A DNA stretch of 64,000 bases from an uncultured Oscillospiraceae bacterium (GTDB taxonomy: Bacteria; Bacillota; Clostridia; Oscillospirales; Oscillospiraceae), in NCBI GenBank assembly GCA_947627325.1, contig CANQVO010000003.1, forward strand, positions 43,263 to 107,262. The letters are read 5' to 3'. The translations under genes were made by a program, and so were the position numbers. Positions 1 to 63,999 of the stretch are shown one piece after another (positions within the stretch are counted from its first letter, which is position 1; every line of letters starts with the position of its first letter). The notes below the pieces were generated by a model that ran no database searches, was not told where the DNA came from, and saw only the letters and a program-made list of their open reading frames with translations.

Positions 1-1023
1 CACGCCCTGGCCCTGGCCGCCGACGGCACCGTCTACGCCTGGGGCAACGGGACCCAGGGCCAGCTGGGCGTGGACCCCTCCACCCTGACCAACAGCACGG
101 AGCAGGGGGGCGACAACTTCCAGTACAGCGTCTCCCCGGTGGTGGCGCGGAACGACAAGGGCGAGCCCCTGCGGGGGATCGTCTCCATCGCCGCGGGCGG
201 CTCGGTCTCCGTGGCCCTGAGCTACGAGGGCAGTATCTACACCTGGGGCGACAACCGCCAGGGTCAGCTGGGCATCAACGCCGACCCCAACGCCGGCGGC
301 AGCGGCAACGAGAACTTCTACCGCGACAGCGCCCAGCAGGTGACCATGGGCCAGCCCTACGGCGGCGGCGCGCCCAACACCAACCAGAGCAACGGCTACC
401 TGGCCATCGCCGCCGGAGGCCAGAGCGCCACCACCCAGAAGAGCTACGGCCACGTCCTGGCCATCCGGGCGGTGCTTACCGACAAGGTGGACAGCACCCT
501 GGTCTACGGCTGGGGCGCCAACGGCTACGGTCAGGTGGGGGACAACTCCGCCGCCCCGGAGGCCAGCCAGGTGGAGCAGACCCACGTCCTCCTGCCCACC
601 GAGGTCCGCTACCGCACCTCCTACGCCGACGAGGACGGGCTCTACTACATCGGCAACCGCACCGTCAGCGTGGCCGCCGGTACGCTCCACTCCCTGGCCA
701 TCGTCCAGAACCGGCCGGAGGGCGTCACCAACGACAGCCAGGACGTGTACTACACCTACGGCTGGGGCTATGACGACCGCGGCCAGCTGGCCCAGGGGGA
801 TGCCTCCGGCAACGTGAACACCTCCGACGGCGGCGGGGACAGCCAGCGGCGCAGTCCCATCCAGCTGCTGGCCAAGGCCCCCGTGGAGGACGGCGCGGGC
901 AACCAGATCAACACCTACGTCACCGACTCCGCCGGGGTGGCCGCCGGCAACGCCTACTCCATCTACTGGGACATCAACGGCGAGGTCTTCGGCGCGGGCT
1001 ACAACTTCACCTATCAGCTGGGC
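1..1023 (+). repeat. RCC1-like beta-propeller P1 (partial, cut by the left window edge)
   Basis: Blade ends in frame +1: HALALAADGTVYAWGNGTQGQLG (1-69), IVSIAAGGSVSVALSYEGSIYTWGDNRQGQLG (178-273), WGANGYGQVG (511-540), WGYDDRGQLA (763-792), GAGYNFTYQLG (991-1023). A ~260 aa non-RCC1 beta-rich spacer follows (1024-1806). Confidence 0.85.
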
Positions 1024-4000
1024 GCCGCGCCCACCCTCACCAGCACGCCCGACGGAAAGGGCGGCTTCCTCAGCGACCACCAGGAGACGGTCAAGCTCCC
1101 TGTCCGGGTGGGCTACGGCGTGAGCCAGAACCTGATCTACGACAAGATCTGGGTCTTCACCACCATGACCGACGAGGACACCGACGAGACCTCCACCATG
1201 CTCACCGCCCGCTACGCCGTCCAGCCCGAGACGGTGCCCCAGGCCGGTGACCCGGGTGATCCCGCCAACGGCATCCCCGCCGACTGGGACATCGCCTCCA
1301 ACGTGGCGTCCATCCCCGTGTCCAAGCTGGTGCAGAGCGGCCCCACCGACAAGACCAAGGACGAAAACCTGCCCATTTGGGACACCGAGAGCGGCCAGCT
1401 CAGCGAGGACCAGTATGACGCGCTGTACGACGTGACCATGCAGTACAACCTGACCCTGACCGACCAGCAGTACGCCGTGGTGTTCAAGGACGGGGTCAAG
1501 CGGTACTACTCCGTGGGCTTCAACATCTCCGAGCGGGACCGGGCCGTGCCCAGCGCCGAGGACAGCTCCATGCTCTACGGCTACGTCCACGAGGACGAGG
1601 CGCCCAACGTGGACATCGTGGACACCAAGGACAAGCAGGAGCCCTATCCCACCCTGACCCGGAACAACGCCGTGCTTCTGCCCACCGAGCTGAAGGACGT
1701 CTATAAGGTCGTGGGCATCGTGGAGGACGCCATCGACTGGGAGGAGAACGGCATCTACGCCGGCAAGGTCAAGGTGACGGTGGAGGACGCCAACAACTTC
1801 GCCACCCCCATGGTCAGGGCGGGGGAGAACTTCACCGTGGCCCTGAAGTCGGACGGCACCGTTTGGGCCTGGGGCGACAACTCCTACGGCCAGCTGGGCG
1901 CCGGCTACACCTATGAAGAACTGCCCTACGCGCCCTACCCCATGCGGGTGGCCGGGGTCGGCCCCCGGGACGGCGCGCCCATCATGCAGCGCCTTACCTT
2001 AATTAAAGAGGTCGCCGCCGGGGACAACTTCGCCCTGGCCCGGACGGCGGACGGCTCGGTCTACGCCTGGGGCGACAACTCCAGGGGCCAGCTGGGCCAG
2101 AACGAGGACATCTACCTGCGCTACGACGCCTCCGGCGACGAGGTGGACGTGGAGATCGACCCCGACGCCCTGGCCGCCCTGCGGGGGAGCTGTTATCCCA
2201 TCCAGGTCACCGCCGGGACCAGCGCCGAGGACAGCGGCAGTGACTACCTCATGGGCGCCACCGCCATCGGCGCGGGCGGCAGTCACGCCCTGGCCGTGGT
2301 GGGGGATATGGGCTGGGTCTATGCCTGGGGCGACAACAGCCGCGCCCAGCTGGGCACCGGGTACACCCCCGCCGCCATCGGCGATCTGCGCACCTACCCC
2401 GACCACGTGATCCAAAACCGCAACGGCGAGAGCGCCGAGCAGAAATACCTCACCGACGCCATCAGCGTCACCGGCGGCACCTGGAGTTCCTACGCCATCG
2501 GCCCCTTCCCCTACGCCAGTTCCGGCAGCGGCGCCGCCCAGGGGGACAGCACCTATGTGGCCGTTTGGGGCGACAACCGCTGGGGCCAGCTGGGCGTGGG
2601 CCCCATTGAGAGCAGCCAGATCGACGACGAATACTACCAGACCACGGTGGCCTATATGCGCCGCAAGACCGGCGACGGCGGCGAAACCGACCTGGCCGAC
2701 GGCATCACCCAAGTTGCCGCCGGCGAGCGCCATGCCGTGGCCATGACCACCGGCGGCATGATCTACGCCATGGGCGATTACAGCTACGGCCAGCTGGGCA
2801 AGGTGGGCGCGCTGGACAGCACCAACGTGGGCTACATCGGCTACGCCAACACCCTCAGCGACGAGAAGGGCACCATCAGCGACGCCCTGGGCGTGGCCGC
2901 GGGGAAGTACCACACCGTGATCCTCCGGGGCAAACGGGCCGGCGACGAGAACGACCCCGGCCCCATCACCAGCAGTTACATCCAGGTGATGGGCACCAAC
3001 ACCAACGGCCAGTTGGGCCTGCCCGCCGTGGACGAGGACGGCTACTACCAGAGCCAGAAGCTGGGCGCCGTCAATTCCGGGGAGAGCTACCAGACCATCC
3101 GCACGCCGGACAGCGCGGAGGGCGTGGTCATCGCCCTGGCCGCCGGCGGGGCCCACACCATCGCCCTCACCGACCTGGGCGAGGTGCTGGCCTGGGGCAA
3201 GAACGAGTCGGGCCAGCTGGGGGAGATGTCCCTGGTGGACCGGGGCGGACCCGCCACCAGCCAGGAGACCGGCATGGCCAGCCAGGCCGGCTTTGACGAG
3301 GCGTACATCCCCACCGCCTCCGGCGTGGTGAACTACGGCGGTGCGCTGAAGTTCGGCGTGCGGATGGAGACCTGGCGCAACGGCGCGCGCTGGGACGACC
3401 TGGGCGACGGGGACTACAACCAGTGCGAATACACCCTCTGGCCCAACCTGCCCACCAACCTGGGCACGGACCCCAACGCCGCGGAGAGCGCCGGGAAGAC
3501 CCTGCCCTACCCCCTGAAGAAGACGGTGGAGGCGGGCAACGGCAACTACACCCACTACGACGGGACGGATATCCCCGGCGGCAGCTACAACATCTGGTCC
3601 AAAGCCGATGGCGAGGACTGGAAGGACACCGGCGCCGAGGTGAAGGTGACCAAGGGCGTGGACTTTGAGGCCCACCCGGCCATCATCAACTTCTTCAAAG
3701 TCGAATTCGACGTGGTGAACTCCAACACCACCAACACCGCCGCCCCCGCCATTGAGGCGGAGTACACCGTGGGCGGCATCACCAGCACCATCCACAACGG
3801 CGACAGCGTCTGGGGCGGCGGCACTCTGGTGCTGAAGGCCATGGGCGCCGGCGGCGAGGACCCCAATTACACCTACACCTGGACCACCGTCCCCACCCTG
3901 GCGGACGGGGAGTACGAGGTCGCCCTCCAGCCCAGAGAGGGACAGCAGGCGGTGTTGGACGGGATCTTCACCATCCCCACCCTGATGAGCCAGATCCAGA

Positions 4001-7000
4001 TCCACTGCTCCATCTACACCCCGCAACTCTTTGACGTCACCCTGAACATCCGCAAGGACAACGGCCCGTGGTCCAACAGCGGCAAGCTCCTCTTCCTCAA
4101 GAGCGACTACCGCACCGTCCAGCTGCAGCCGTCCGCCGACGGCAGTAGCGCCTACGTCCCCGTGGTGTGGAACGAGACGGACGAGATCTGGGAGAAGGTC
4201 CAGCTGCCCGAAGGGGAGTACACCATCTGGGAGTACAAGAGCGACTGCTACGATACGGACGGGAACCTCCAGCTGAACCTCTGCTACGAGAGCCCCCACG
4301 TCATCCAGGTGGAGGGGCAGGACGCCACCGATGACCTGGACTACTATACCTTAAATATCGCCACCAAGCCGGTGGGCGGCGTGTCCATGGCCTATGTGGT
4401 GGTCAACTACGCCTCGGTGACCGATGACGACGGGGAGGACAAATACGCCCCCCTGAACAACTGGCGTCTGCAGGACGTGGTGATGCGGGACGCGCCGCTG
4501 ATGGTCCAGGCCATCGGCACAGTGGCCTCCGGCTTCTTCACCGGCCGGGTGAACTCCACCTGGACCGTGGGCCCGCAGAACACCAACGCCCAGACCGGCT
4601 TTACCGAGATCCCCAACCGGGACGGCACCCTGCCCAACCGCCAGCAGCAGCTCCGGGGCACCACCGCCACCCAGATCTACAAGGCCAACGGCTACGGCGT
4701 GGATCTGCTGGTCACCATGGACGGCATGGTGGGCACCGACCCCACCTTTGTCAGCCCCATGGAGATCCAGGTCACCGTCAACGGCGAGCCGAACCCCGCC
4801 GCCATCAGCGGCTACCGCTTCTTCGCCGAGAGCCAGAACGGGCGGAGCGGCGTGTCCGGCCAGCGCACCTGGGCCAGCTATGAGTTGACCAACCAGGGCG
4901 ACGGGATCTTCTACGCCCCTGACGGACTGCCCCGGGATCGGTACATGATCTACGTCCAGTACCCCGCGGAGAAAGGCAAGAGCGTCAAGATCCCCGTGAA
5001 GATGAGCGACTTTACCCTGACCCAGACCGGCTACACCACTGCGGCCTACCCCAGCGGCCTGGATCCCGAGGTCGCCCCCCTGGAGATCCCCCTGCGCCAG
5101 GTCAAGTATCAGATCCAGGCGCAGAACAACGCGGCCTCCGGCGCCTCGGGCACCGAGGGCTACGTGCAGGTCATCAGCGGCATCTCCTCTGACGCGGCCT
5201 GGGCGTGGGACTATCAGTTGCAGCCGGGCGAGGCGGATAACCATTCCGGCACCGTCCACGGCGAGCTCCACAATGGCCACACCCACCTGGGCACCATCAT
5301 CGCCGACCCGGACAACCCCGACCCCGAAAAGCAGACGGTGGTGGTGAAGAGCATCAAGGTCACCGGCGGCCAGACCGCCGATGGCAGTTTCATCGTGCCC
5401 ACGAACAACCTGATCTCGGTGCAGGCCATGGGCGACCACGCGGACACCTTTATCATCAGCGCCGAGTGGGTGACCGACAGCGCCGATAAGTACCACAACA
5501 CCAGCGACCTGCCCGCCGGCACCCCGGTCACCGTCAGCACCGACCCCAGCTACCACGTGAACCTCCCGGCCACCAGCGGGACCTACGACCCCACCTACGA
5601 TGTGGCCTGGGACTATGACAACAACACCTTTACCGGCACCTTCAGGCCCAAGGGCATTTCGGGCAACCTGGAGACGGAGGCTCTGCCCCTGGAGACCCTG
5701 AATCAGCTGACCATCGGCTTTGTGGGCTACGGCAACACACAGAGCGGCAGTTACGGCCAGGTCCAGCTCACCTCCCTGGAGATGCTGCCCCAGGAGGAGG
5801 ACGGGGACTTCTACGCCTCTATCCTGGCCAAGGGCGGCGGCTACCTGCTGACATTGGCGGCGGACACGCCCGCCCCCATGGGCGGCGCCATCCAGAGCCA
5901 GGTCATCGTCCCCGGCCGGGAGCTGGCCAACTGGGAGGCCGGCGCGCCCAAGCTGGACGCGCTCTCCCTGGGCAGCAGTATCGAGCTGATCACCGGCGAC
6001 ACGGTGGACATCGTGGGCAGTATCGAGACGTACATCCCCGACTACCGCCTGGCCTACTACTCCGCCCACCCCGACTATTACCGCAACACCACCCTGGGCG
6101 GGGACGCCATGGAACAGCCCTACATCCAGACGCCGCCGGAGAAAGTGGACGGCGCCGAAGTGGACGAGATGGGAACGCCCATCCAAGTGGTCAACCCCGA
6201 CCGCTATGTGCAGACCGGGGTGGGTGAGGACGGCGCTCCCATCTACCGGGACTTCTGGCAGGACGCGGAATTGACGCTGACCACCTCCAACCCCGACGTG
6301 GTCAGTGTGAAGGACTATACCTTGACAGCTATGGGCCAGAGCGGCTGGGCCACCGTGCGGATCTACAACACCGTCACCGGCCGGTCGGCCATGCTCCGGG
6401 TCCACGTGCTCAACGTGGAGGACGCCACCGGCGACGGCCACGAGAGCGAGTGGGCCTATAAGTCCACCCCCATGGTGGCCTATGGCGACAACTTCTCCGT
6501 GGCATTGAAGGCGGACGGCACCGTGTGGGCCTGGGGCGACAACGCCCAGGGCCAGCTGGGCGTGGGCTACGCCCCCGAGGTGCTGGCCTATTCCGAGGCG
6601 CCCATGGTGGTGCGCTGTTACGACGCCGCCAACGACGCCACCCCCACCCTGCGGAACGTGGTGGCCATCGCCGCCGGGGCGGATCACGCCGTGGCCCTCA
6701 CCCGGGACGGGCAGATCTACGCCTGGGGCGACGACAGCTTTGGCGAGCTGGGCGTGGCCCGGGAGGACTTCCCCTACACCGAGACCACCGTGGTGGACGG
6801 CGTCAACACCGAAGTCGTAGTGGGCTACGGCAGTTACTTCGCCACCCCCGCCCAGGCGGACAACATCTCCGGCCAGGTGGTGGAGATCGCCGCCGGGGAC
6901 GGCTTTACCGTGGCCCGCACGGAGCGGGGCACCGTTTGGGCCTGGGGCCGGAACGACAAGGGCCAGCTGGGTGTGGGCTACCGGGGCGACGTGCTGGGCG

Positions 7001-58000: not shown

Positions 58001-61000
58001 CCGCCCACGGCCAGTTCGGCACCCCCAACTACTCCCTGCAAGGGCCCAACTACGCCGAGATCGGCTCCTTCGTCCGCATGGCCGCCGACGGCGTCAGCGT
58101 GGAGGAGGCCCTGCCCACGGACTACGCGGGCCATCCCATCCGCTCCGCCAGCCGCTTCATCGCCATCGGCGCCGGGGCCGGGTCCGTGGCCGCCATCGAC
58201 GTGGACGGCGCGGTGGCCGTTTGGGGCTCCAACGCCAAGGGCCAGCTGAGCGCCTTTGAGACCAAGCAGATCTACACCCCCGCCACCTACGACCTGGTCT
58301 CCGCCGGGACGGACAGCGAGGGCAACGAGCTCCAGGCCAAGGTCCTGAAGGATCCGGGCTACTTCACGGTGACCGGGGACAGCCAGCCCGCCAATGTCCT
58401 GTACGCCAGCTATCAGAACACCTACAACACCACCTACACCGACGTTTACACCGTGGGCGGTGATACCCAGCTCATCGGCACCTACCGCTCCGTGGCCCTC
58501 CAGACCGCCATGGGCCAGACCGGCTATGTGCTCTACACCAAGCTGGGCGACGCCACCCTGGACGCGGACGGGACGGCAGACCGTTCCGCCCTGATCCCCT
58601 ACACCCTCCTGGCCTCCGGCTCCAACGCCTATGGCCAGCTGGGCATCGGCCGCGGCGGCGTGAGCGTTGCCATGTCCGCCCGGGCGGTCATGGCCGGGGA
58701 GGCCAACCCCGTGAACGCCCAGGAGCGGGTGGATAACCTGATGTTCATCGCCACCGCGCCCTACGGCGGCACCACCCTGGCCTACGACAACAACTACGGC
58801 TCGGTGTACGCCTGGGGCAACAACACCAGCGGCCAGGTGGGCGACGGCACCTACGGCAACCAGACCACCCCCGTGATGGTGCTCAAGGACGGCGGCGGGT
58901 CCTATCTGGACATCACCCACGTGCTGGTCAACGACGATCCCACCCTGCCCGACTACACCGCCACCATCCTCTTCAACGTGGCGGAGGCGGACGCCGCCGC
59001 CTCCACCGCCCAGCTGGCGGTGGCGGGCCAGGTGTTCACCGACTTCACCGGCGCCACCTCCACCGTGAAGGCCCCCGCCGGCACCGCCATCGACGCGCAG
59101 ATCGTCATGGCCCCCGAGTACACCATCGGCGCCGCGGCCATGATTACCGCCAGCGGGGTGGTGGTCCCCCTGGGCTTCACCAAGGGCGACGGCTCCGGCA
59201 CCCTGGCCGCCGGGGACAGCATCGACCGCTTCACCATGCCCGCCGAGGACGTGACCATCATGGTCACCGTGGTGGACGTGGCCTTCGGCAGCGGCGGCGT
59301 GGAGTACACCGTGCGCCTGGGCGACCAGCTGCTGGCCGCGGCCCCGTACAGCTACCTGGGCCTGAGCACGGCCCCCGCCACCAGCGCCAAGGCCATGGTG
59401 GGCGACGAGGTGCCCTTCGCCATCCAGATCCCGGACGGCCAGACTCTGACCCGCCTGCACTACTACCAGACGGACAATGAAGACGAGATCGTGGGCCTGG
59501 AGTTCACGGTGGACACCTCCACCGCGCCCAACGTGGCCTACGGCCAGTTCGTCATGGGCTCCACCGACGACAACCAGAATATCCAGTACGTCATCGAAGC
59601 GGAGTTCGGCCCCGCCGGGAGCAACCCGGCCTACGGCTTGGAGCTGGACGTGGTGGACAACTACAACCCGGTGCCCGGCACCTCCACCACCGCCAGCAAC
59701 TCCGTGTCCATCACCTCCACCAGCGGCGGCCTGGGCCTGAGCGGGATCACCGCCGACAACGACATCCTCAACGGCCAGACCGCCATCCGGGCCGGTGACC
59801 TGGTCACCGTGACCGCCAACCTGGGCAGCCCCGCCTACTACATCCAGGTGACCGCCGCCACCAAGAACTTCGGCACGTACACCGTGCCCGTCTACGTCCA
59901 AGACGGCTCCACCGCCACCTTCGTCATGCCCTCGGACGACGTGGAGCTCACCGTCAAGTTCCTCTACGGCGCTATCACCACCGTCCAGTACGACACCCTC
60001 ATCTCCGCCAAGGGGGAGATCACCACCGCCATCAACTACGGCGACGCGGTGCGGATCGCGGTGAAGGACATCGTGGCCAACCTGGGCTTCAACGCCTACG
60101 GCCCCTTCCGCTACACCCCCAAGCCGGAGAACCTGACCTTTATCTCCACCAACGAGCGGGTGGCCACCGTGGACAACAACTGCTTCCTGGTGGACGGCTA
60201 CGGGAACTACGTGGACCAGGCCGGGAACGTGGTGAACGAGGCTGACCGGGTCTATAACCCCGACTTCGGCCTGGTGAAGGCGGGCTCTGAGACCGCCGGA
60301 TACACCTACATCATCGTCAGCGACGACCGGGGCAACGTGGGCTACTTCAAGCTGGGCGTGGTGCCCGGGCCGCAGATGGTGGACGGCGTGGCCCTGAAGA
60401 AGGACGTGGCCTTCCCCATGATCGAAGTGGGCGCCCAGCACACCATCGCTTTGAAGTCGGACGGCTCGGTCTGGGCCTGGGGCCGCAACAACCTGGGCCA
60501 GCTGGGCCTCCAGCGGGGCACCACCCAGTCCACCACGCCCACGGAGGTCCTGGCCGTGGTGGATAACCGGGGCAACACCGCCCCCTTGACCGGCGTGGTG
60601 AAGATCGCCGCGGGCGGCAACCACAACCTGGCGCTGAAGTCGGACGGCTCGGTCTGGGCCTGGGGCGACAACGCCTTGGGCGCCCTGGGCATCGGCAACC
60701 AGGGCGGCGTGCAGTACGCCGCCGTCCAGGTCCACGGCATCAACCCCATGGACAACGGGATGCTGGGCAGCGACCTCTACTCCTCCGCCATCGTGGACAT
60801 CGTGGCCGCCGGGGCGGTGGACCAGAGCGGCGCCACCACCCGCCAGTACTCCATGGCGCTGGATAAGAGCGGCCGGGTCTTCGCCTGGGGCAGCAACTAC
60901 CACGGCGTGGTCAACCCCGCCGACAACACCGGCGACCGGGCCGGGGTCATCACCGTGCCCATCAACATCAGCCAGAACTTCACCACCCTCAACGATCCTC

Positions 61001-63999
61001 TGACCCTGTCGGCGGATAAGATCGCCGCCAACGCCCGGGTCCTGAAGCGGGACGGCCAGGTCATCACCTGGGGCGTCAACGACGAGACGCACCGCGCCTA
61101 CGGCGGCTACGGCACCACCGAGAGCCCCGAGCGGGCGGTGCTGGGCGGCCGCGCCCTGGAGGTCAGCGGCGGCGTGTACAACGCCGTGGCCGTCACCACC
61201 GGCGGCCAGGTGAAGACCTGGGGCGGCGACAACTCCATCGGCGGGTACGACACCCGCTACGCCAACGGCAAGCACGACGTGGAGATCCTGCCCGGGGAGC
61301 AGATGATCGACCGGGACGGCAAGCCGCAGACCGAGAGCCAGCGGCTGCCCTACGTGGACAACTACGGCAATCCCATCTACGTCCGCTATGACGACGAGAC
61401 CGGCGCCATCCTCTCCCAGGCGTACATGAACATGGGCACGGGCCGGTACTACAACGCCACCTCCGACCAGGGCGAGGACCTGGGCACCGCCGAACAGCTG
61501 GCGGAGAAGGGCTACCAGGTCTGGTACAGCGACCAGGAGACCATCGTGCCGGTCACCAACACCACCGGCGAGGCCGTGGTGGTGGAAGACGTGCTGGAGA
61601 ACTACGTCCTGCCCTCCACCTTCACCGCCCTGAGCAAGGGCTATGAGTATGGCCGGGAGGTCATCGGCTTCATCTACTCCGGCGCCACCCAGGCCGCCGA
61701 CAGCGTCACCCAGGCCGCGCCGCTGCCCGAGGCGGGCTATCCCGGCACGGTGACCATCGAGGCCGTGGAGGCCGGCTCCGCCACCGGCGGGGACGACGCC
61801 CTCTACCATAAGTCTGCCCTGCTCTACGGCTATGTGGAGATGTACAGCAAGGACCGCCAGCTCATCGGCTACGCCCCCGCGTCTTACTTCAAGCAGGACG
61901 GCGACAGCCTGGTGGTGGGCGAGGACTCCAACGGCGTGCCCTACACCACCGAGGACCTGGCCGAGGTCCTGCTGTCCCTGAACGATCTGATCGCCGGGTA
62001 TGAGACCCCCGCGGGCTACACCAAGCTCACCCGGCCCATCTATCTTGGAATGCCCGTCACCGCCGACATCTCCACCTACCTCCAGGTGGCCTACAACGAC
62101 GGCAAGCTGTGGAGCGTCGGGCCCTTCCAGTACATGAGAAAGACCACCTCCGCCGACGGCGCCAAGGACCTCTACGGTCCCGCCCTGGGCCAGGGCGGCA
62201 ACCTGGACGAAAACGGCGAGAGCTACGTCTACGCCTACCGCCAGACCGGCGATGGCGGAGAGTACCTGGTGGACGCCGACGGCCAGTATGTCCCCCAGCG
62301 GGACGAGAACGGCTATCCCATCGAGGACAAGACCCTTTGGGGCGTGCCCGGCTGGGTCTCCGCCGGTTCCGCCGGCGTGGCGGGCGCGGCCATCAACGGC
62401 ATCGTGGAGGTGAAGAACTCCGTCTCCGTCACCGACCAGCACTCCATCGTCATGAAGGCCAACGGCTCCCTGTGGGCCTACGGCAAGAACGACAACGGCC
62501 GCATTGGCGACGGCACCTCCACCTCCACCTCCATCCCCGTCCGGGTGGGCGCCAGCTACTTCATCCTGGAGGATTACCTGGTCTCCATCCGGGAGGGCGA
62601 GACCTTCCAGTTCAACGTGGATCCCAAGATCTCCGCCTTCAACGTCCTCAACAGCCTGGAGGAGGACGCCTCCAACCAGGATCTGGCCTGGTTCGTTTGG
62701 GACGCGGAGGAGGACTCCGACTGGAGCCAGCAGGGTCCCGACGAGCTCTACAAGACCTCCTGGAACGACGTGGTCAAGGTGGAGTACGAGACGCTTACCC
62801 CCAGCGAGAGCGCCGCCAAGGGCCTGAAGTACACCCAGAGCGACAAGCGGGCCACCATCACCGGCCTGAAGGCCGGGGTCACCTATGTCCTGATCTCCGT
62901 GGCCAACGACCCGCTGATCGTGGGCGCCTTCCGGGTGGAGGTCCGGCCCGGGGACGAGGTCAGCAGCGTGGCCGCCGACGGCACGCGGAAGGTCATCCAG
63001 GTGGGCGTCAGCGAGACGGCCACGATGGAGGACCGGGTGAGCGTCATGGGCGCGGACAACGCCAAGAGCGAACAGCTCCTGGCCCTGAACCGCCAGCTGG
63101 CGGAGGCCGGGACCTATGTGCCGGTGGAGCGTCAGGGCGACGTCTACGTGCCCGGCGCGGCCCGGGACAGCGAGAGCGCCGATCCGGTGCCCGCCTATCC
63201 CAGCGGCGGGCTCTACCAGGGGATGTACGACGCCTATGACGAGGCCATCCTGACCGCCCAGCACAACACCACCAAGCTGAACGCCGTCTACGGCGACAGC
63301 GTGGCCTATCCCATGGTGAGCAGCGGCACCAACTTCACCGTGGCCCTGGCCGCCGACGGCACCGTGTGGACCTGGGGCGCCAACGACTACGGCCAACTGG
63401 GCCAGGGCGACCTCTTCGGCACCACCGCCGCCCCGCGGCAGGTCATCGCCCAGGTCCGGGCCGACCAGTACGACGGCTTCCCGGCGGGCACTGTCATCCG
63501 CTACGAATACCTCAACAACGTCCGCAAGGTGGTGGCCGCGGGCAACTTCGCCTACGCCTTGAAGAACGACGGCACCGTGTGGGCCTGGGGCCGCAACAGC
63601 TCCGGCCAGCTGGGCCTGGGCGGCGGCTACCAGGAGTACCTGCGCGTGCCCTACGCCACACAGATGCTGGCCGGCGGCCAGGCCGCCGCCACCTACTCCA
63701 GCGTCTACCTCCAGGAGATCGTGGATATCGCCGCCGGCGGCGTTGACGACGCCCACGGCTTCGGCTACTTCATCCAGTCGGTCTACCGCCGGGGCCAGGT
63801 GGAGGACGCGGAGTCCACCACCGGGCTGACCACCAAGTTCTACAACCTCACCGACAACGTCTTCGGCGTGGGCGACAACGCCAGCAACCAGCTGAGCCTG
63901 CTCAGCACCACCAGGACCTTTACCACCCCCGTGTCCATCCGGGTCTCCAGCGGCATCGCCGCCCAGGTGTCCATCGGCACCGCCGCCACCGGCTCCATC
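1..63999 (+). CDS. Internal fragment of one giant multi-domain protein (at least 21,333 codons visible; 5' and 3' ends both outside the window): tandem RCC1-like beta-propellers separated by Ig-like (Big_2-like) and other beta-sandwich domains
   Basis: Frame +1 gives the RCC1 blade signature (hydrophobic-AAG-x2-H-x-[VL]AL-x2-DG-x-[VLI]-[YW]-x-WG-x-N-x2-GQLG) from codon 1 to the last codons. One example is VAIAAGADHAVALTRDGQIYAWGDDSFGELG at 6661-6753. Third codon positions are almost always G/C in this frame. The ORF track reports only ORFs that end in a stop, and it lists no frame-1 + ORF at all, so frame +1 has no stop in 64 kb. Hand translation of segments from every module met no stop and no frame change. 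All four giant minus ORFs are in the same codon register (start coordinate mod 3 = 1), as expected for antisense shadows of a frame +1 gene. Confidence 0.93.
1807..3222 (+). repeat. RCC1-like beta-propeller P2 (seven blades counted)
   Basis: Entry [33 protein letters not shown] (1801-1899). Later blades end YAWGDNSRGQLG (to 2097), YAWGDNSRAQLG, VWGDNRWGQLG, YAMGDYSYGQLG, VMGTNTNGQLG and LAWGKNESGQLG (to 3222). Confidence 0.85.
3223..6468 (+). other. ~1,080 aa non-RCC1 beta-rich array between P2 and P3 (several InlB-B-repeat-like / Ig-like units, ending in a Big_2-like domain)
   Basis: There are no GQLG/WG blade motifs here. Units repeatedly end in an F-x-[IV]-P-...-alternating hydrophobic strand, e.g. 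GIFTIPTLMSQIQIHCSIY (~3960-4020) and GSFIVPTNNLISVQAMGDHADTFIISAEW (~5385-5470). The terminal Big_2-like stretch is LTLTTSNPDVVSVKDYTLTAMGQSGWATVRIYNTVTGRSAMLRVHVLN (6271-6414). Confidence 0.5.
6469..8685 (+). repeat. RCC1-like beta-propeller P3 (seven blades counted, split by a helical insertion)
   Basis: Entry [32 protein letters not shown] (6466-6561). The last blade, [31 protein letters not shown], ends at 8685. The downstream spacer 8686-9279 contains the Ig-like VKVGVTDDSYFEVTDLGGSQYEIRPTQRSDGQKLGLTSVYIDYEF (9007-9141). Confidence 0.85.
7021..7731 (+). other. ~237 aa probably alpha-helical insertion between blades 3 and 4 of P3
   Basis: NLLRVTEPSLFTDLFQTIYQLDPVSDAAELAALSARYQRP...METYILALELYDEMQKYLQETHNTW...WSYEDYQRAKAEYDQRQLDGTW. 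The segment has helix-favouring composition, heptad-like hydrophobic spacing and no blade motifs. The propeller resumes at [32 protein letters not shown] (~7735-7830). Confidence 0.5.
9280..10776 (+). repeat. RCC1-like beta-propeller P4 (seven blades counted)
   Basis: Entry APMVAAGAKHAVALDSLGRVWVWGDNSRGQLG (9277-9372). The last blade, GETFIVFARETGTVFASGDNTAAQLG, ends at 10776. A Big_2-like domain follows: LEFTSLDESIVRLESATDTRVTFATASPIKYGNTYIQVYDRATGRTLLLRVSVVP (11026-11190). Confidence 0.85.
11491..12702 (+). other. ~400 aa mixed alpha/beta insertion inside P5 that carries a Cys4 motif
   Basis: It starts after blade 2 (…REVYVVGG) with LSSITTNLIHTPSEEELTQIHRANFAKVMKLFGNAEQNVLAFYQDESGAW… and ends before ILDVAAGADHLLALTAGGEIYAAGANGHGELG. 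It has no blade motifs and is rich in Y/W/F. Confidence 0.55.
12382..12459 (+). other. Cys4 motif C-x4-C-x14-C-x4-C (possible zinc-ribbon-like knuckle pair)
   Basis: Codon-by-codon read: LLL-C-DYPN-C-GLQYDPSDTITPVI-C-NEPG-C-DKV. The Cys codons are at 12382, 12397, 12442 and 12457. A further WRCQNDH lies at ~12592-12612. Cys is otherwise very rare in this protein. Confidence 0.4.
14113..15975 (+). repeat. RCC1-like beta-propeller P6 (seven blades counted, long loops)
   Basis: Entry [25 protein letters not shown] (14107-14181). Internal blades include [32 protein letters not shown] (~14827-14922) and [32 protein letters not shown] (~15058-15153). One blade loop carries an E/P-rich PAPAPEEEGEPSADT (15301-15345). 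The propeller ends at FSGRNKERQG (15975). A Big_2-like domain follows: VITYTSSDETIAQFEYDAQKGMYCLRPTKEAYGRLIITVNNVHDNYRGDYEVIVLP (16291-16458). Confidence 0.8.
16495..18012 (+). repeat. RCC1-like beta-propeller P7 (seven blades counted)
   Basis: Entry VTVKAAENATIALQANGTVWMWG (16495-16563). Later blades include GFALAASNSGKVYAWGRNDRGQIG, VVAGKDHALALRSDSLVYAWGDNTQGELG, DAGDNYSMVMTRDGRVFTFGDNTYGRLG and NAGPNHAMALSVDAKNELYAWGKNTFGQLG. A Big_2-like domain follows: LWVDSSDPSVAVAEIVPGVEGGIRVTTTGVGTANIYLYNT...YTTIFRVRS (18403-18600). Confidence 0.8.
18682..20133 (+). repeat. RCC1-like beta-propeller P8
   Basis: Entry AVPMVASGLNFTVALKANGTVWFWG (18679-18750). Later blades include LAAGKYHALALTSELLW...[13 protein letters not shown] (~19530-19665) and the last blade, FGENTTVGVQAEGSVWAWGSDTNGALG, which ends at 20133. 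A ~300 aa spacer follows (20134-21030), ending in the Ig-like strands VNIGAGGQVTVVFQDLEHKAQALVMLRVIP (~20806-20895). Confidence 0.8.
21031..22494 (+). repeat. Degenerate RCC1-like propeller P9 (most blades have lost the WG-x-N-x2-GQLG motif)
   Basis: Entry LPKVAAGGDHFLALSSDGAVYSWGGNFRGQLG (~21028-21123), exit LTEAGEIFTSGSNTLGQLG (to 22494). Blades in between keep only the strand cores: VIDLAAGDEASIAVNAKGVAYQWGWSFTMMQ, VAVYYGLSADGHLYQKYEYG and VLVALAADGSVYYQDIAYNG. A Big_2-like domain follows: FVYEVSDERLFTVEPTLDGDLLIKANTNGYYGQGILTVYDTVTRAQGSLSITVRQV (22957-23124). Confidence 0.65.
23173..24375 (+). repeat. RCC1-like beta-propeller P10
   Basis: Entry APKIAAAANYSAALTADGSIWVWG (23170-23241). Blades include [58 protein letters not shown] and [27 protein letters not shown]. 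The last blade, LGDRHGLALRDDGTVYAWGANDHQQLG, ends at 24375. A Big_2-like domain follows: FYTVASSNENVAVAKLTPDGTTVTITPTPGGYGTAVILLKW... (24901-25104). Confidence 0.8.
25168..26499 (+). repeat. RCC1-like beta-propeller P11
   Basis: Entry [32 protein letters not shown] (25165-25260). Blades include VGDTFALALDKNGQVWAWGQNGSGQLG and AAGGAFAGAVDRNGYVYTWGVNTKGQLG. The propeller ends at TDGTVWAVGRGTSGQLG (26499). A Big_2-like domain follows: VVRYTLSDYTIATFIEGTVGSDNQATGGVVKLASTEKKLGSTDLIIAVY... (26794-27000). Confidence 0.8.
27022..28683 (+). repeat. RCC1-like beta-propeller P12 (contains a ~165 aa beta-rich loop insertion at ~27560-28050)
   Basis: Entry TAVAAGVDHSVALAEDGTLWVWGSNRQGQLG (~27022-27114). 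Blades include [81 protein letters not shown] and LGESHGLAVMENKGEVYAWGLNAQGQTG. The propeller ends at AAGSNEGYKLG (28683). A Big_2-like domain follows: VEWVSGDTSVATVDVVNSDTAHKAVMRPVTGHYGLSVIRVTNTVSGHTGSLRLTVTQ (29044-29214). Confidence 0.8.
29242..30732 (+). repeat. RCC1-like beta-propeller P13
   Basis: Entry [32 protein letters not shown] (29239-29334). Blades include [56 protein letters not shown] and AAGTYQSYAVSETGDLYAWGNNDHGELG. The propeller ends at [24 protein letters not shown] (30732). The spacer 30733-31428 contains the Ig-like LRVSLTDPRLGRVEKVANVTDGVDGIVFTPSTDTMGSTMMEISYTAADGATYTMLIHLVVS (31186-31368). Confidence 0.8.
31429..33129 (+). repeat. RCC1-like beta-propeller P14 (zinc-knuckle insertion after blade 1)
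   Basis: Entry [31 protein letters not shown] (31429-31521). Blades include [79 protein letters not shown] and GGKSHAVALTRDGAVYTWGQ. The propeller ends at YAAGTNSEGQTG (33129). A Big_2-like domain follows: FTFFSSDESIVQINYVTDSEGRNVGAKIIPTGQIEGEYYDRFGTATVVVVDRVNKNWGSFKVTV (33565-33762). Confidence 0.8.
31591..31659 (+). other. CxxC-x16-CxH zinc-ribbon-like knuckle inserted in the loop after blade 1 of P14
   Basis: Codon read: EEYFY-C-PV-C-DKPIPASAFDANGHYT-C-A-H-LDG. Cys codons are at 31591, 31600 and 31651, and His is at 31657 (another His at 31642). Confidence 0.45.
34003..34914 (+). other. ~300 aa Ala/Leu/Asp/Thr-rich, probably alpha-helical (possibly coiled-coil-like) segment inside the P15 insertion
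   Basis: Verified codon by codon: DWDTAYEAAETALATWTATESARLSAYNTAKSDLDAMGWAAQRDDLIARIDALANETTAAITQIDQSVTTLNTY...MAEHMAALKTALTTRLAGYQNMRQALANLGDD...YDAVTRIDKLLQGAEID...AADLFNAYKAMNANEYFQKRTTVDDKWTEWMDAKKEADPYRNTMAFYQAMMDLDRV. Long stretches have no Gly or Pro, and there are no blade motifs. Confidence 0.55.
34915..35409 (+). other. Possible BspA-type leucine-rich-repeat (LRR_5-like) patch, followed by an acidic EPEEAEEEPDRES linker (35410-35448)
   Basis: YPGVVAITGLSDEGKAARELVLPTRLTESDYTTVFQ...VVLVDFDENNTGHQFSDGAFTSLTLSGSYQVVRVGAFQNTRMNTLVFQAEIPTSGAILASSFTS...YLTQVEVDNVQLAGGQMKPDALAATGIFSGVHIVAV. The repeated x-AF-x4-L-x2-L/V-x-F/V pattern resembles BspA-like LRRs. This is pattern recognition only. 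Confidence 0.3.
37774..39261 (+). repeat. RCC1-like beta-propeller P16 (carries an ~90 aa loop insertion with an H/C motif)
   Basis: Entry [32 protein letters not shown] (37771-37866). Blades include [105 protein letters not shown] and NHIYVWGNNDHGQLG. The propeller ends at YSFGEGELGELG (39261). A Big_2-like domain follows: LHVKIVDESLLTYAYDRSRTRLTFSAVHPDKFGETMVVLTYDYTDPATGETFHYVYQFPVFVKD (39559-39750). Confidence 0.8.
39778..41571 (+). repeat. RCC1-like beta-propeller P17 (zinc-ribbon insertion after blade 1)
   Basis: Entry [33 protein letters not shown] (39778-39876). Blades include [95 protein letters not shown]...NVYAMGTNLYGEMG and SYAFGINDRGQLG. The propeller ends at GYVWGWGNNATTATGTTILGQLS (41571). 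The spacer 41572-42381 contains a weak Ig-like signature, WAAVMSNPDIARVDVTNNASDNVLIFSEG... (42001-42170). Confidence 0.8.
39952..40026 (+). other. Classical CxxC-x17-CxxC zinc-ribbon motif inserted in the loop after blade 1 of P17
   Basis: Codon read: AAWA-C-PQ-C-GRVYDEAHSFATDDAIP-C-AT-C-GATVTK. Cys codons are at 39952, 39961, 40015 and 40024. It sits between PVQV (blade 1 exit) and [14 protein letters not shown] (blade 2). Confidence 0.6.
42382..43954 (+). repeat. RCC1-like beta-propeller P18
   Basis: Entry TVAGMNFSAMNTTDGNVWVWGDNVYGVLG (42382-42468). Blades include [94 protein letters not shown]...KVYGWGGNNRKQL and AELYTWGDGDLGQLG. The propeller ends at GYIWGWGNNRYLQLG (43954). A Big_2-like domain follows: ITVEVTDPTIAVANNVGGQWVIRSAGRNEYGQTSVVFKAYE...FQVVATSVLQLEIYP (44317-44565). 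Confidence 0.8.
44584..46512 (+). repeat. RCC1-like beta-propeller P19 (long aromatic/His/Cys-containing loops)
   Basis: Entry [32 protein letters not shown] (44581-44676). Blades include [100 protein letters not shown] and GGDSSAAIDAQGHLYVWGDNAYGQLG (to 46218). A degenerate last blade runs to ~46512. The spacer 46513-47313 ends in the Big_2-like FTVISSDESILAVHVKPGTDGYFELRAMPNAFGTVTVMIRENTTQVTRMFSVSVRP (47101-47268). Confidence 0.75.
47314..48711 (+). repeat. RCC1-like beta-propeller P20
   Basis: Entry [32 protein letters not shown] (47311-47406). Blades include [75 protein letters not shown] and TLYGIGSNSQNQLG. The propeller ends at [24 protein letters not shown] (48711). A Big_2-like domain follows: LVFKSLNTRLITFSDSATGLALIHWENVETGMYTYVTVTDINTGYTAQIRVAFVDD (49018-49185). 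Confidence 0.8.
49267..50733 (+). repeat. RCC1-like beta-propeller P21
   Basis: Entry [26 protein letters not shown] (49264-49341). Blades include [83 protein letters not shown] and AGDLFSLALDDSGHVWYWG. The propeller ends at SHMVLMTENGALYAYGSDAYAALG (50733). A Big_2-like domain follows: YQVEILGGENIVSYDPTTGTLTASATATGVVQVVVRDVEHMDANGQYLELGVITLVVN (51031-51204). Confidence 0.8.
51244..52836 (+). repeat. RCC1-like beta-propeller P22 (a ~125 aa insertion precedes the last blade)
   Basis: Entry APMVAAGDDFTMALTADGRIYTWGTTDNGVLG (51241-51336). Blades include [97 protein letters not shown]...NVYAFGYNYLGSLG and [28 protein letters not shown]. The last blade, VSDEHMVMIRDDGFVLTSGRNDHGQIG, ends at 52836. 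A Big_2-like domain follows: FKVSASNPIVDVIQRQDSAGGSLFYIRP...GSTVITITETVTGLSVQFTLNILK (53119-53325). Confidence 0.8.
53371..54504 (+). repeat. RCC1-like beta-propeller P23 (several degenerate blades)
   Basis: Entry [32 protein letters not shown] (53368-53463). Blades include AAGGQHAVAIDKDGKVYTWGRNAY, AAGSAHTLFLTSAGTVYAYGSNSRGQLG and AAGGNVSMAVTQSGLLYLWGQGDVGQQG. The propeller ends at FAMDAKGAIYGWGSNARGALG (54504). Confidence 0.75.
54697..54786 (+). other. Acidic E/P/A-rich low-complexity linker (probably disordered)
   Basis: Codon read: EDLQAPAEEPVEEPAQASEEEMAEEPAAAA. It lies in the P23-P24 spacer (54505-55353). That spacer is the only propeller junction without a recognisable Big_2-like signature. 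Confidence 0.6.
55354..56790 (+). repeat. RCC1-like beta-propeller P24
   Basis: Entry [32 protein letters not shown] (55351-55446). Blades include AAGNNHILALDRGGSVYAWGYNDQSQLG, AAGNRFSVAVDADGFVYTWGANNSGVLG, AAGDRHILALDQYGNVYAWGDNAYGQLG, GFNTSAVIRQDGTVWLFGDQSYG and GYRHMMALGRDGAVYSWGSDNFGQLG. The propeller ends at SAGMYHSVVLMEDGTVYAMGYNNTMQLG (56790). A Big_2-like domain follows: VTLRSLNEEVAVIRTETTADGRNVAVVDVVGFGVGYIVAEYVDPDTGLHYSNAFRVYG (57127-57300). Confidence 0.8.
57355..58842 (+). repeat. RCC1-like beta-propeller P25
   Basis: Entry YPQVGVGENFSVVLRDNGTVWTFGSNYDTATGVG (57352-57453). Blades include [108 protein letters not shown] and LLASGSNAYGQLG. The propeller ends at NYGSVYAWGNNTSGQVG (58842). 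Confidence 0.8.
58843..60414 (+). other. ~520 aa non-RCC1 beta-sandwich array: three ~100 aa InlB-B-repeat-like units plus a terminal Big_2-like domain
   Basis: Verified codon by codon. Unit ends are DRFTMPAEDVTIMVTVVDVAF (~59224-59286), GQFVMGSTDDNQNIQYVIEAEF (~59542-59607) and ATFVMPSDDVELTVKF (~59911-59958), each preceded by an a-x-aGd-x-V-x-V/I-type strand (e.g. IRAGDLVTVTANLGSPAYYIQVTAA). The Big_2-like stretch is LTFISTNERVATVDNNCFLVDG...GLVKAGSETAGYTYIIVSDDRGNVGYFKLGVVP (60133-60366). Confidence 0.45.
60415..62508 (+). repeat. RCC1-like beta-propeller P26, interrupted by a ~385 aa insertion before the last blade
   Basis: Entry [32 protein letters not shown] (60412-60507). Blades include [68 protein letters not shown] and YNAVAVTTGGQVKTWGGDNSIGG (to ~61245). 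The last blade, VTDQHSIVMKANGSLWAYGKNDNGRIG, ends at 62508. A Big_2-like domain follows: VVKVEYETLTPSESAAKGLKYTQSDKRATITGLKAGVTYVLISVANDPLIVGAFRVEVRP (62770-62949). Confidence 0.75.
61246..62400 (+). other. ~385 aa non-RCC1 insertion of unknown fold inside P26
   Basis: YDTRYANGKHDVEILPGEQMIDRDGKPQTESQRLPYVDNYGNPIYVRYDDETGAILSQAYMNMGTGRYYNATSDQGEDLGTAEQLAEKGYQVWYSDQETIVPV...YLGMPVTADISTYLQVAYNDGKLWSVGPFQYMRKTTSADGAKDLYG...YVYAYRQTGDGGEYLVDADGQYVPQRDENGYPIEDKTLWGVPGW. It is Tyr/Gly/Asp-rich, with no blade motif and no family signature that I recognise. Confidence 0.45.
63310..63999 (+). repeat. RCC1-like beta-propeller P27 (partial, cut by the right window edge)
   Basis: Entry [32 protein letters not shown] (63307-63402). 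It continues with [29 protein letters not shown] (~63529-63615), IVDIAAGGVDDAHGFGYFIQSVY... and NVFGVGDNASNQLS. The frame is still open at 63999. Confidence 0.8.

Follow-up and report, generated by a model that had tools for sequence, protein, structure and literature searches.

What does a bacterial gene encode when its reading frame crosses tens of kilobases without a stop codon, and is its repetitive architecture the outcome of a recent expansion or of long selection? The question is raised by a stretch of 64,000 nt from an uncultured Oscillospiraceae bacterium (GenBank assembly GCA_947627325.1, contig CANQVO010000003.1, positions 43,263 to 107,262 of the forward strand), the whole of which is referred to here as the window. 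Its plus-strand frame 0 is stop-free over nt 1-63999 (21,333 codons) and open at both window ends in a six-frame scan that includes open-ended frames; the frame encodes 27 modules, 25 complete and two cut, each consisting of an RCC1-like propeller followed by an immunoglobulin (Ig)-like domain of ~100 aa. The array is an ordered set of individually selected modules and not a recently expanded repeat, because distinct propellers, loops and inserts each keep their position in orthologs. The window lies wholly inside one giant gene, carried by a high-GC Clostridia bacterium of Oscillospiraceae type; the product is a beads-on-a-string chain of RCC1-like propellers, predicted to be closed and seven-bladed, each with a short variable connector and a divergent Big_2 spacer.

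The open frame and its propellers

The window has a GC content of 68%, and the giant open reading frame (ORF) shows GC fractions of 0.63, 0.47 and 0.95 by codon position, the third-position value of 0.95 being confined to frame 0; the frame is therefore genuine coding sequence in a 68% GC genome. In a standard ORF listing the sole large ORFs are minus-strand frames of 766-14,408 aa, and the plus-strand gene is missing because its frame is open-ended and hence skipped; the minus-strand ORFs were rejected as genes and are regarded as high-GC shadow ORFs, since the codon bias and all domains lie in plus frame 0. The translated fragment is acidic (pI 4.5) and Cys-poor (32 Cys in 21,333 aa). No transmembrane-like segment is found in the window protein; 19-residue Kyte-Doolittle means peak at 1.77, in strand-like stretches with charged residues. 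Rfam and tandem-repeat scans of the window return nothing relevant; a 36-nt unit present twice with 81% match is seen at 54705-54777 (plus strand), inside the linker of module M23, in which no Ig domain is detected (modules are numbered M1 to M27).

A sequence-only reading of the window had proposed about 27 consecutive RCC1 propeller-Ig modules and had listed 26 propeller entries, at which the protein was cut into 27 pieces for Pfam analysis. RCC1 (PF00415), RCC1_2 (PF13540) and WD40_RLD (PF25390) are matched in all 27 pieces, with RCC1 and RCC1_2 scores far over the Pfam gathering cut-offs in each, and the count of 27 modules is upheld. A blade hidden Markov model (HMM), built and iterated on the window itself with a threshold of E<0.01, counts 171 blades and places a blade start no more than 5 aa from each of the 26 entries. 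Exactly seven blades are detected in 18 of the 25 complete modules; the other seven show four to six at the strict threshold, and most of these gain a weak extra blade when the threshold is relaxed. Blades are spaced at a median of 73 aa (219 nt; interquartile range 189-273 nt), which replaces the 150-180 nt first estimated, and module length is 618-1,554 aa (1.85-4.66 kb), a range reaching slightly below and well above the proposed period of 1.9-2.9 kb, for which greater lengths had been foreseen where insertions occur. The HMM-detected blades hold ~38% of the residues and the Ig domains 10%.

An AlphaFold2 (AF2) model of M4, made with an alignment of the other window modules, has a predicted template modelling score (pTM) of 0.72; the predicted local distance difference test (pLDDT) score exceeds 90 in the blade cores and is low in the loops. 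Compared by Foldseek with the complete propellers of UVR8, the HERC2 RCC1-like domains (RLDs) and RCC1, the model gives target-normalised TM scores of 0.72-0.82 (best 0.80-0.82) at a sequence identity of 16-22% to RCC1/UVR8. Because the M4 model superposes on these complete propellers, the window repeats are predicted to close into seven-bladed propellers, as had been proposed; closure is modelled for M4 and expected by extension in the remaining modules.

Module order and selection in related genomes

Protein identity between modules is 24-30% (maximum 38%), and the best repeat in a DNA self-comparison reaches 83% over 112 nt; the mutual divergence noted at the outset is thus borne out, and the array is therefore not an assembly artefact. 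Recent tandem duplication was considered and rejected, as adjacent modules are no more alike than distant ones: module similarity and separation within the array are uncorrelated (Spearman -0.01), and for only 3 of 27 modules is the most similar partner a neighbour.

The homologous arrays sought in related genomes were found as three collinear orthologous fragments. A scan of species-representative genomes identifies two metagenome-assembled genomes (MAGs) of a mouse-gut catalogue, both named 'uncultured Oscillospiraceae bacterium', which carry the orthologs L001 and L002; each locus spans 20.6 kb, consists of one open frame with 52-53 blades and is collinear with window aa ~17,580-21,333 at 57% identity. 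The third, P0121 (NCBI MCM1295859.1), was found by an exhaustive search of 50%-identity cluster representatives; it is a 6,712-aa protein that fills its 20,136-bp contig, and one alignment covers window aa 14,134-20,707 at 68.8% identity. The collinear orthologs thus come from two Oscillospiraceae mouse-gut MAGs (57%) and one mouse-gut contig labelled Muribaculaceae (69%), three independent assemblies that each remain open across 20 kb. P0121 is deposited as a protein of a Muribaculaceae (Bacteroidota) mouse-gut MAG while the other orthologs are from Oscillospiraceae; its label may reflect a mis-binned contig.

The dN/dS ratio between L001 and L002 is 0.12 over 6,843 codons and lies at 0.08-0.18 in every 600-codon bin. 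Between the window and its orthologs, identity is 72-79% in blades, 68-76% in Ig spacers, 55-65% in module-specific loops and 59-70% in large inserts, with few gaps; the suggestion that each propeller has loop decorations of its own is therefore matched by the conservation of these loops and inserts. The proteins are 57% identical although GC is 68% in the window and 60-63% in L001/L002; the window comes from a separate lineage of higher GC, which the scanned species-representative genomes do not include. Since orthologous modules (57-69%) are far closer to one another than paralogous ones (~27%), the array, with its module order, is older than these species; collinear orthologs together with the dN/dS of 0.12 show the array to be old, ordered and under purifying selection, in agreement with the old, selected duplications of the sequence-only reading.

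Past the point matching the window end, L001 stays open for a further 3,096 aa, which contain more propellers, a Big_2 linker, a ~620-aa helical-looking insert and a CxxC...CxxC motif; for this reason the window gene, provided that it keeps the same collinearity here, would exceed 24,000 codons, possibly by many more. It is among the largest bacterial ORFs known. In a library of 50%-identity representatives a search with a module retrieves 6,384 proteins at E≤1e-30, and among the best 150 of these none is a fragment extending beyond L001. The expectation that RCC1 proteins usually carry one propeller and sometimes a few does not hold among these best 150, of which 117 have at least 28 blades and 35 at least 49; multi-propeller RCC1 arrays are common in metagenomes.

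A query built from both window ends matches, among species-representative genomes, only orthologs of the 3' part, and returns from metagenomes solely the strain of L001. Word-indexed protein searches with M22 and M1 give only generic RCC1 proteins of at most 1,241 aa and at most 41% identity, and no ortholog; plasmid (near) and phage (protein) collections give no match or only distant single RCC1 propellers. L004 (ERZ779629 NODE-98, ~6x coverage) matches the MGBC108936 locus (L001) at 99.97% identity; at 10446-10448 its GAG->TAG change interrupts the giant ORF with a stop, whether through sequencing error or as a nonsense polymorphism.

Spacers, inserts and feature coordinates

The unit between propellers had been described as a beta spacer with a Big_2-like Ig domain. 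A linker HMM built from the regions preceding each propeller entry gives 22 significant copies, one per junction, which end 6-118 aa ahead of the next propeller (6-48 aa in 20 of the 22); the copies share a conserved GFNL in the first half, followed by the pattern SSD..VA.V...G...V.V.D...G....V.V. The Pfam gathering score for Big_2 (PF02368) is not reached by the window linkers, one of the 22 being matched at E 0.37, and no Big_2 match at E≤0.01 is found in whole modules. When compared with PDB sequences the linker profile matches a 'surface protein' of phage SU10 (E 1.7e-5), the S-layer protein Sap and, weakly, intimin and LigA/LigB. An AF2 model of the M6 linker has a pLDDT of 78.8, with residues 45-145 mostly above 90 apart from one 10-residue block averaging 67, and its core is a single nine-strand sandwich; the best Foldseek matches are the C-terminal Ig domain of the lambda tail-tube protein gpV (probability 1.0, E 4e-3), the Ig domains of the S-layer proteins SbsB/SbsC, and titin Ig. 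The orthologous linker at L001 aa 4083-4164 passes Pfam Big_2 (40.3 bits, E 3e-10), and the window linker HMM matches the same stretch (E 4e-7).

Because Pfam on the window linkers stays under threshold, the link to Big_2 rests on the profile, the predicted structure and the orthologous linker; together these support a spacer in which a short, variable connector leads into a single divergent Ig-like domain of Big_2 type, ~100 aa long. The Big_2-like part of the original description is thus retained, and the 'beta spacer' gives way to the short variable connector. Big_2 domains such as those of the gpV C-terminus, LigA/LigB and intimin share the spacer fold and a weak profile similarity with the window linkers, which differ in falling below the threshold of PF02368 and in carrying the family-specific GFNL motif.

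Sixteen segments of at least 120 aa, totalling 4,956 aa, lack any family. Pfam at E≤1 on the ten largest and a PDB-sequence search on four of those ten yield nothing credible, and BLASTP detects no similarity among the 16. For the 973-aa insert of M2 there are zero matches in a word-indexed protein collection and no credible Pfam or PDB match (one PDB match, E 0.027); in P0165, a distant relative, a similar additional segment follows the first propeller. The 550-aa insert of M15 at 33925-35574 and the ~620-aa segment at L001 aa ~5230-5850 look alpha-helical or coiled-coil and sit between propeller blades; no family match is found for either, and they might mediate oligomerisation. Most cysteines cluster as CxxC...CxxC or C-x4-C...C-x4-C in a zinc-ribbon-like manner within propeller loops and linkers; M17 gives one weak Pfam match to Zn_ribbon_8 (E 0.0035).

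Table 1. Coordinates of the giant ORF, its modules and other features (nt of the window unless stated otherwise).
Feature	Position	Strand	Description
Giant ORF, internal fragment	1-63999	+	21,333 codons; 2.27 MDa; pI 4.5; start and stop both outside window
M1	1-1806	+	left-edge-cut propeller 1-1125, 5 blades; linker without significant Ig match
M2	1807-6468	+	7-blade propeller 1807-3234; 973-aa orphan beta-rich insert 3235-6153; Ig 6154-6426
M3	6469-9279	+	7-blade propeller 6469-8739; 248-aa insert 6991-7734 between blades 3 and 4; Ig 8902-9138
M4	9280-11220	+	7-blade propeller 9280-10821; Ig 10930-11193; AF2-modelled module
M5	11221-14112	+	7-blade propeller; 405-aa orphan insert 11488-12702 with a C-x4-C...C-x4-C cluster; Ig 13783-14091
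M6	14113-16494	+	7-blade propeller 14116-16029; AF2-modelled linker 16030-16494; Ig 16192-16464
M7	16495-18681	+	7-blade propeller; Ig 18367-18618
M8	18682-21030	+	7-blade propeller; 273-aa tail, Ig signal weak
M9	21031-23172	+	degenerate propeller: 4 significant blades, 7 degenerate strand motifs readable; Ig 22861-23124
M10	23173-25167	+	7-blade propeller; Ig 24709-25041
M11	25168-27021	+	6 blades and 1 weak; Ig 26710-26988
M12	27022-29241	+	6 detectable blades, 163-aa gap; Ig 28954-29223
M13	29242-31428	+	7-blade propeller; Ig 31069-31368
M14	31429-33798	+	7-blade propeller, CxxC...C at aa 10531-10551; Ig 33424-33771
M15	33799-37773	+	7-blade propeller; 550-aa orphan insert 33925-35574 after blade 1; Ig 37489-37755
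M16	37774-39777	+	7-blade propeller; Ig 39448-39762
M17	39778-42381	+	7-blade propeller; CxxC-x17-CxxC loop aa 13318-13342 (nt 39952-40026); Ig 41863-42159
M18	42382-44583	+	7-blade propeller; Ig 44236-44442
M19	44584-47313	+	6 blades strict, 7 relaxed; 236-aa extra segment 46303-47010; Ig 47011-47283
M20	47314-49266	+	6 blades and 1 weak; Ig 48901-49173
M21	49267-51243	+	6 blades and 1 weak; linker Ig signal weak
M22	51244-53370	+	7-blade propeller; Ig 53020-53337
M23	53371-55353	+	5 blades and 1 weak; 265-aa linker without significant Ig match
M24	55354-57354	+	7-blade propeller; Ig 57034-57318; full-length ortholog in P0121
M25	57355-60414	+	7-blade propeller; 395-aa orphan beta-rich segment 58888-60072; Ig 60073-60378
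M26	60415-63309	+	propeller broken by 395-aa orphan insert 61234-62418; Ig 62749-62958
M27	63310-63999	+	first 3 blades; right-edge-cut propeller
Cysteine cluster, M17	39952-40026	+	sequence motif
Cysteine cluster, M5 insert	12382-12459	+	sequence motif
Cysteine cluster, M14	31591-31653	+	sequence motif
Cysteine cluster, L001	L001 aa ~4180-4206		sequence motif
Antisense ORF	20530-63756	-	shadow ORF
Antisense ORF	4351-16992	-	shadow ORF
Antisense ORF	17185-20340	-	shadow ORF
Antisense ORF	1999-4299	-	shadow ORF

Relatives and the role of the giant protein

Smaller RCC1-array surface proteins have the same propeller as the window protein and carry extracellular targeting signals; they comprise the mini-homolog L003, the P0124-type proteins and the RCC1+SLH proteins of Paenibacillus (P0019, P0041, P0274), and have 1-12 propellers in at most ~7,200 aa at 22-33% identity, whereas the window gene has at least 27 propellers. 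L003, on a 19-kb Logan contig, is a protein of ~5,500 aa with a signal-peptide-like N-terminus, a Ser/Thr-rich region, seven propeller+Ig modules and three SLH domains (PF00395; Pfam E 1e-35), in that order; the N-terminus of its ORF1, MQKDLFTRLISGLLATSMVLSMVTSSGLGYVNASA, was read by eye as a Sec signal peptide. It is split into three called genes by an in-frame TAG at 4928-4930 and a frameshift at ~15808-15838, interruptions which could be assembly error, decay or recoding. Its first propeller was tried as an ortholog of M1, which would put the gene start ~2 kb upstream of the window; the identity of 30% is no higher than between paralogs and leaves the match a hint only. Pfam finds no SLH domain in the window protein or in L001/L002.

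P0124, P0135, P0139, P0145, P0160, P0168 and P0184 are Clostridia-type proteins of 4,700-7,200 aa with long RCC1 arrays, a common HLHFE-type C-terminal sequence and an N-terminal hydrophobic segment read by eye as a membrane anchor. The linker Ig, also part of L003, is present in P0124, P0135, P0160, P0168 and P0184 and absent from P0139 and P0145. Pfam, run on P0124 alone, identifies Dockerin_1 and Peptidase_M23 at its C-terminus, and the P0124-type family may be a tethered peptidoglycan hydrolase; the relatives bearing Peptidase_M23 are 22-25% identical to the window.

By sequence and by analogy with these relatives, the giant protein is probably a multivalent surface-binding fibre, secreted and wall-associated, with distinct ligand-binding propellers. 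Export by Sec and a place on the wall are suggested by the termini of the small relatives, the acidic composition free of transmembrane segments and the Big_2 spacers; the protein would not be membrane-embedded and, by the same analogy, would be held at or near the cell wall. The fibre may be hundreds of nanometres long, the window part alone reaching ~200 nm or more if ~8-9 nm is allowed per module on typical domain sizes. Its propeller faces would offer many distinct ligand-binding sites and could let the protein adhere, in a multivalent and multi-specific way, to gut surface molecules of host, dietary or microbial origin. For the giant RCC1 class as a whole, transmembrane anchors are reported to be lacking and an extracellular location is predicted (West-Roberts et al. 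2023, bioRxiv).

Several points weigh against the surface-binding fibre. The window protein shows no signal peptide, anchor or effector domain, both gene ends lying outside the window; L003 is just ~30% identical to it, and the termini of that mini-homolog may therefore not be shared. Loops and inserts of no recognisable family make up one third of the residues. RCC1 propellers of Gram-positive surface proteins are not known to bind ligands. A stronger form of the surface-binding proposal, in which the polypeptide is a fixed-order 'library' holding 30 or more receptor modules that cannot be interchanged, each for a different ligand, is possible but doubtful; each propeller may then bring its own conserved loops or orphan domains (coiled-coil-like, zinc-ribbon-like or, in M2, 973-aa beta-rich).

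A structural role in the envelope, as an S-layer-like coat, sheath or matrix scaffold without specific ligands that serves spacing, protection or biofilm, is unlikely though worth serious consideration: SLH domains occur in L003 and in numerous RCC1 proteins of Paenibacillus and Clostridia, the linker is similar to Ig domains found in three S-layer proteins (Sap, SbsB and SbsC), and the acidic, Cys-poor composition would suit such a role. Structural repeats generally remain alike one another, however, while the window modules are distinct and keep their loops and inserts across species, which suggests module-specific interactions, and the window protein shows no SLH domain. The propeller-Ig chain is rather improbable as a delivery stalk, a long arm for reach or targeting whose catalytic or toxic end domain (e.g. 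a peptidoglycan hydrolase) would be brought to the walls of other cells or of the producer; it would then serve antagonism, predation or wall remodelling and not adhesion as such. The seven relatives with the HLHFE-type end and the Dockerin_1-Peptidase_M23 terminus of P0124 speak for a stalk, and the preprint ties giant proteins to cell-wall degradation (West-Roberts et al. 2023); however, no catalytic domain was found in the 21,333 aa of the window or the further 3,096 aa of the ortholog, the relatives bearing Peptidase_M23 are remote, and a simple stalk has no need of individually conserved, distinct propellers.

That high-GC DNA produces spurious long ORFs, such as the minus-strand frame of 14,408 aa, and that two related assemblies (L004, L003) contain an in-frame stop or frameshift, could point to a repeat mis-assembly, a chance ORF or a decaying pseudogene; this is highly improbable in view of the third-position GC confined to frame 0, the Pfam domains along the full length, the lack of near-identical repeats, the three ortholog assemblies open over 20 kb each and the low dN/dS. 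The fold alone, with UVR8, HERC2 and RCC1 as best structural matches, favours a cytoplasmic RCC1-type regulator, i.e. a scaffold or a guanine-nucleotide exchange factor acting on small GTPases, of the sort known from eukaryotes or Legionella effectors. Such a regulator is scarcely credible here, given homologs that bear signal peptides and SLH, dockerin or Peptidase_M23 domains, Big_2 spacers and an acidic composition typical of extracellular proteins, and the low identity to RCC1/UVR8. Nucleotide exchange or another known RCC1 activity would not be expected of a protein outside the cell.

Giant extracellular bacterial adhesins and fibres include Ebh, SiiE, the MpIBP/LapA-type RTX adhesins and SwmB, and titin is a structural counterpart. 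Like the window protein these are megadalton strings of beta-rich repeat domains that serve as a long reach or binding rod; their repeats of ~100 aa (Ig/BIg/FN3-like) are often near-alike, whereas the window unit has 600-900 aa and ~27% identity between copies. The eukaryotic RLD proteins RCC1, UVR8 and HERC1/HERC2 have the seven-bladed RCC1 fold in common with the window, and differ as cytoplasmic or nuclear regulators with one to three propellers; nothing in the window points to an exchange-factor or photoreceptor function.

The closest known system is a class reported from the gut metagenomes of humans, mice and rabbits and from one Pseudoflavonifractor, the 'Oscillospiraceae RCC1-type giant genes', which are described as made of 'a single repeating protein domain' and named beside SwmB and titin (West-Roberts et al. 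2023, bioRxiv); the literature library searched contained no further paper joining these terms. The window gene shares with them the giant ORF, RCC1 repeats over the full length, the lack of transmembrane anchors in the part that the window covers, and relatives in mouse-gut Oscillospiraceae; it differs in that its unit is a propeller with a divergent Big_2 spacer and module-specific orphan inserts, and the present analysis adds collinear orthology and purifying selection to the 2023 description. The kind is already described, and the window gene is a further member with refinements, not a new kind of system; what goes beyond the published paragraph is the pairing of propeller and Big_2 domain as a supermodule, the finding that module order is conserved, the evidence on selection, the SLH and Peptidase_M23 termini of small relatives and the orphan inserts.

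For annotation, ORF finders that ignore open-ended frames yield only spurious antisense ORFs here, and fragmented assemblies conceal such giant genes or give them wrong taxonomic labels. Genes of this kind are among the longest known in bacteria and are carried by common gut Clostridia. Selection acts on every module, loops and inserts included, and the Sec/SLH or dockerin/Peptidase_M23 ends of small relatives point to the cell surface; a giant repeat protein is thereby recast as a set of separately testable binding modules, and the receptor 'library', if true, would be a mode of multi-specific adhesion undescribed for any characterised adhesin.

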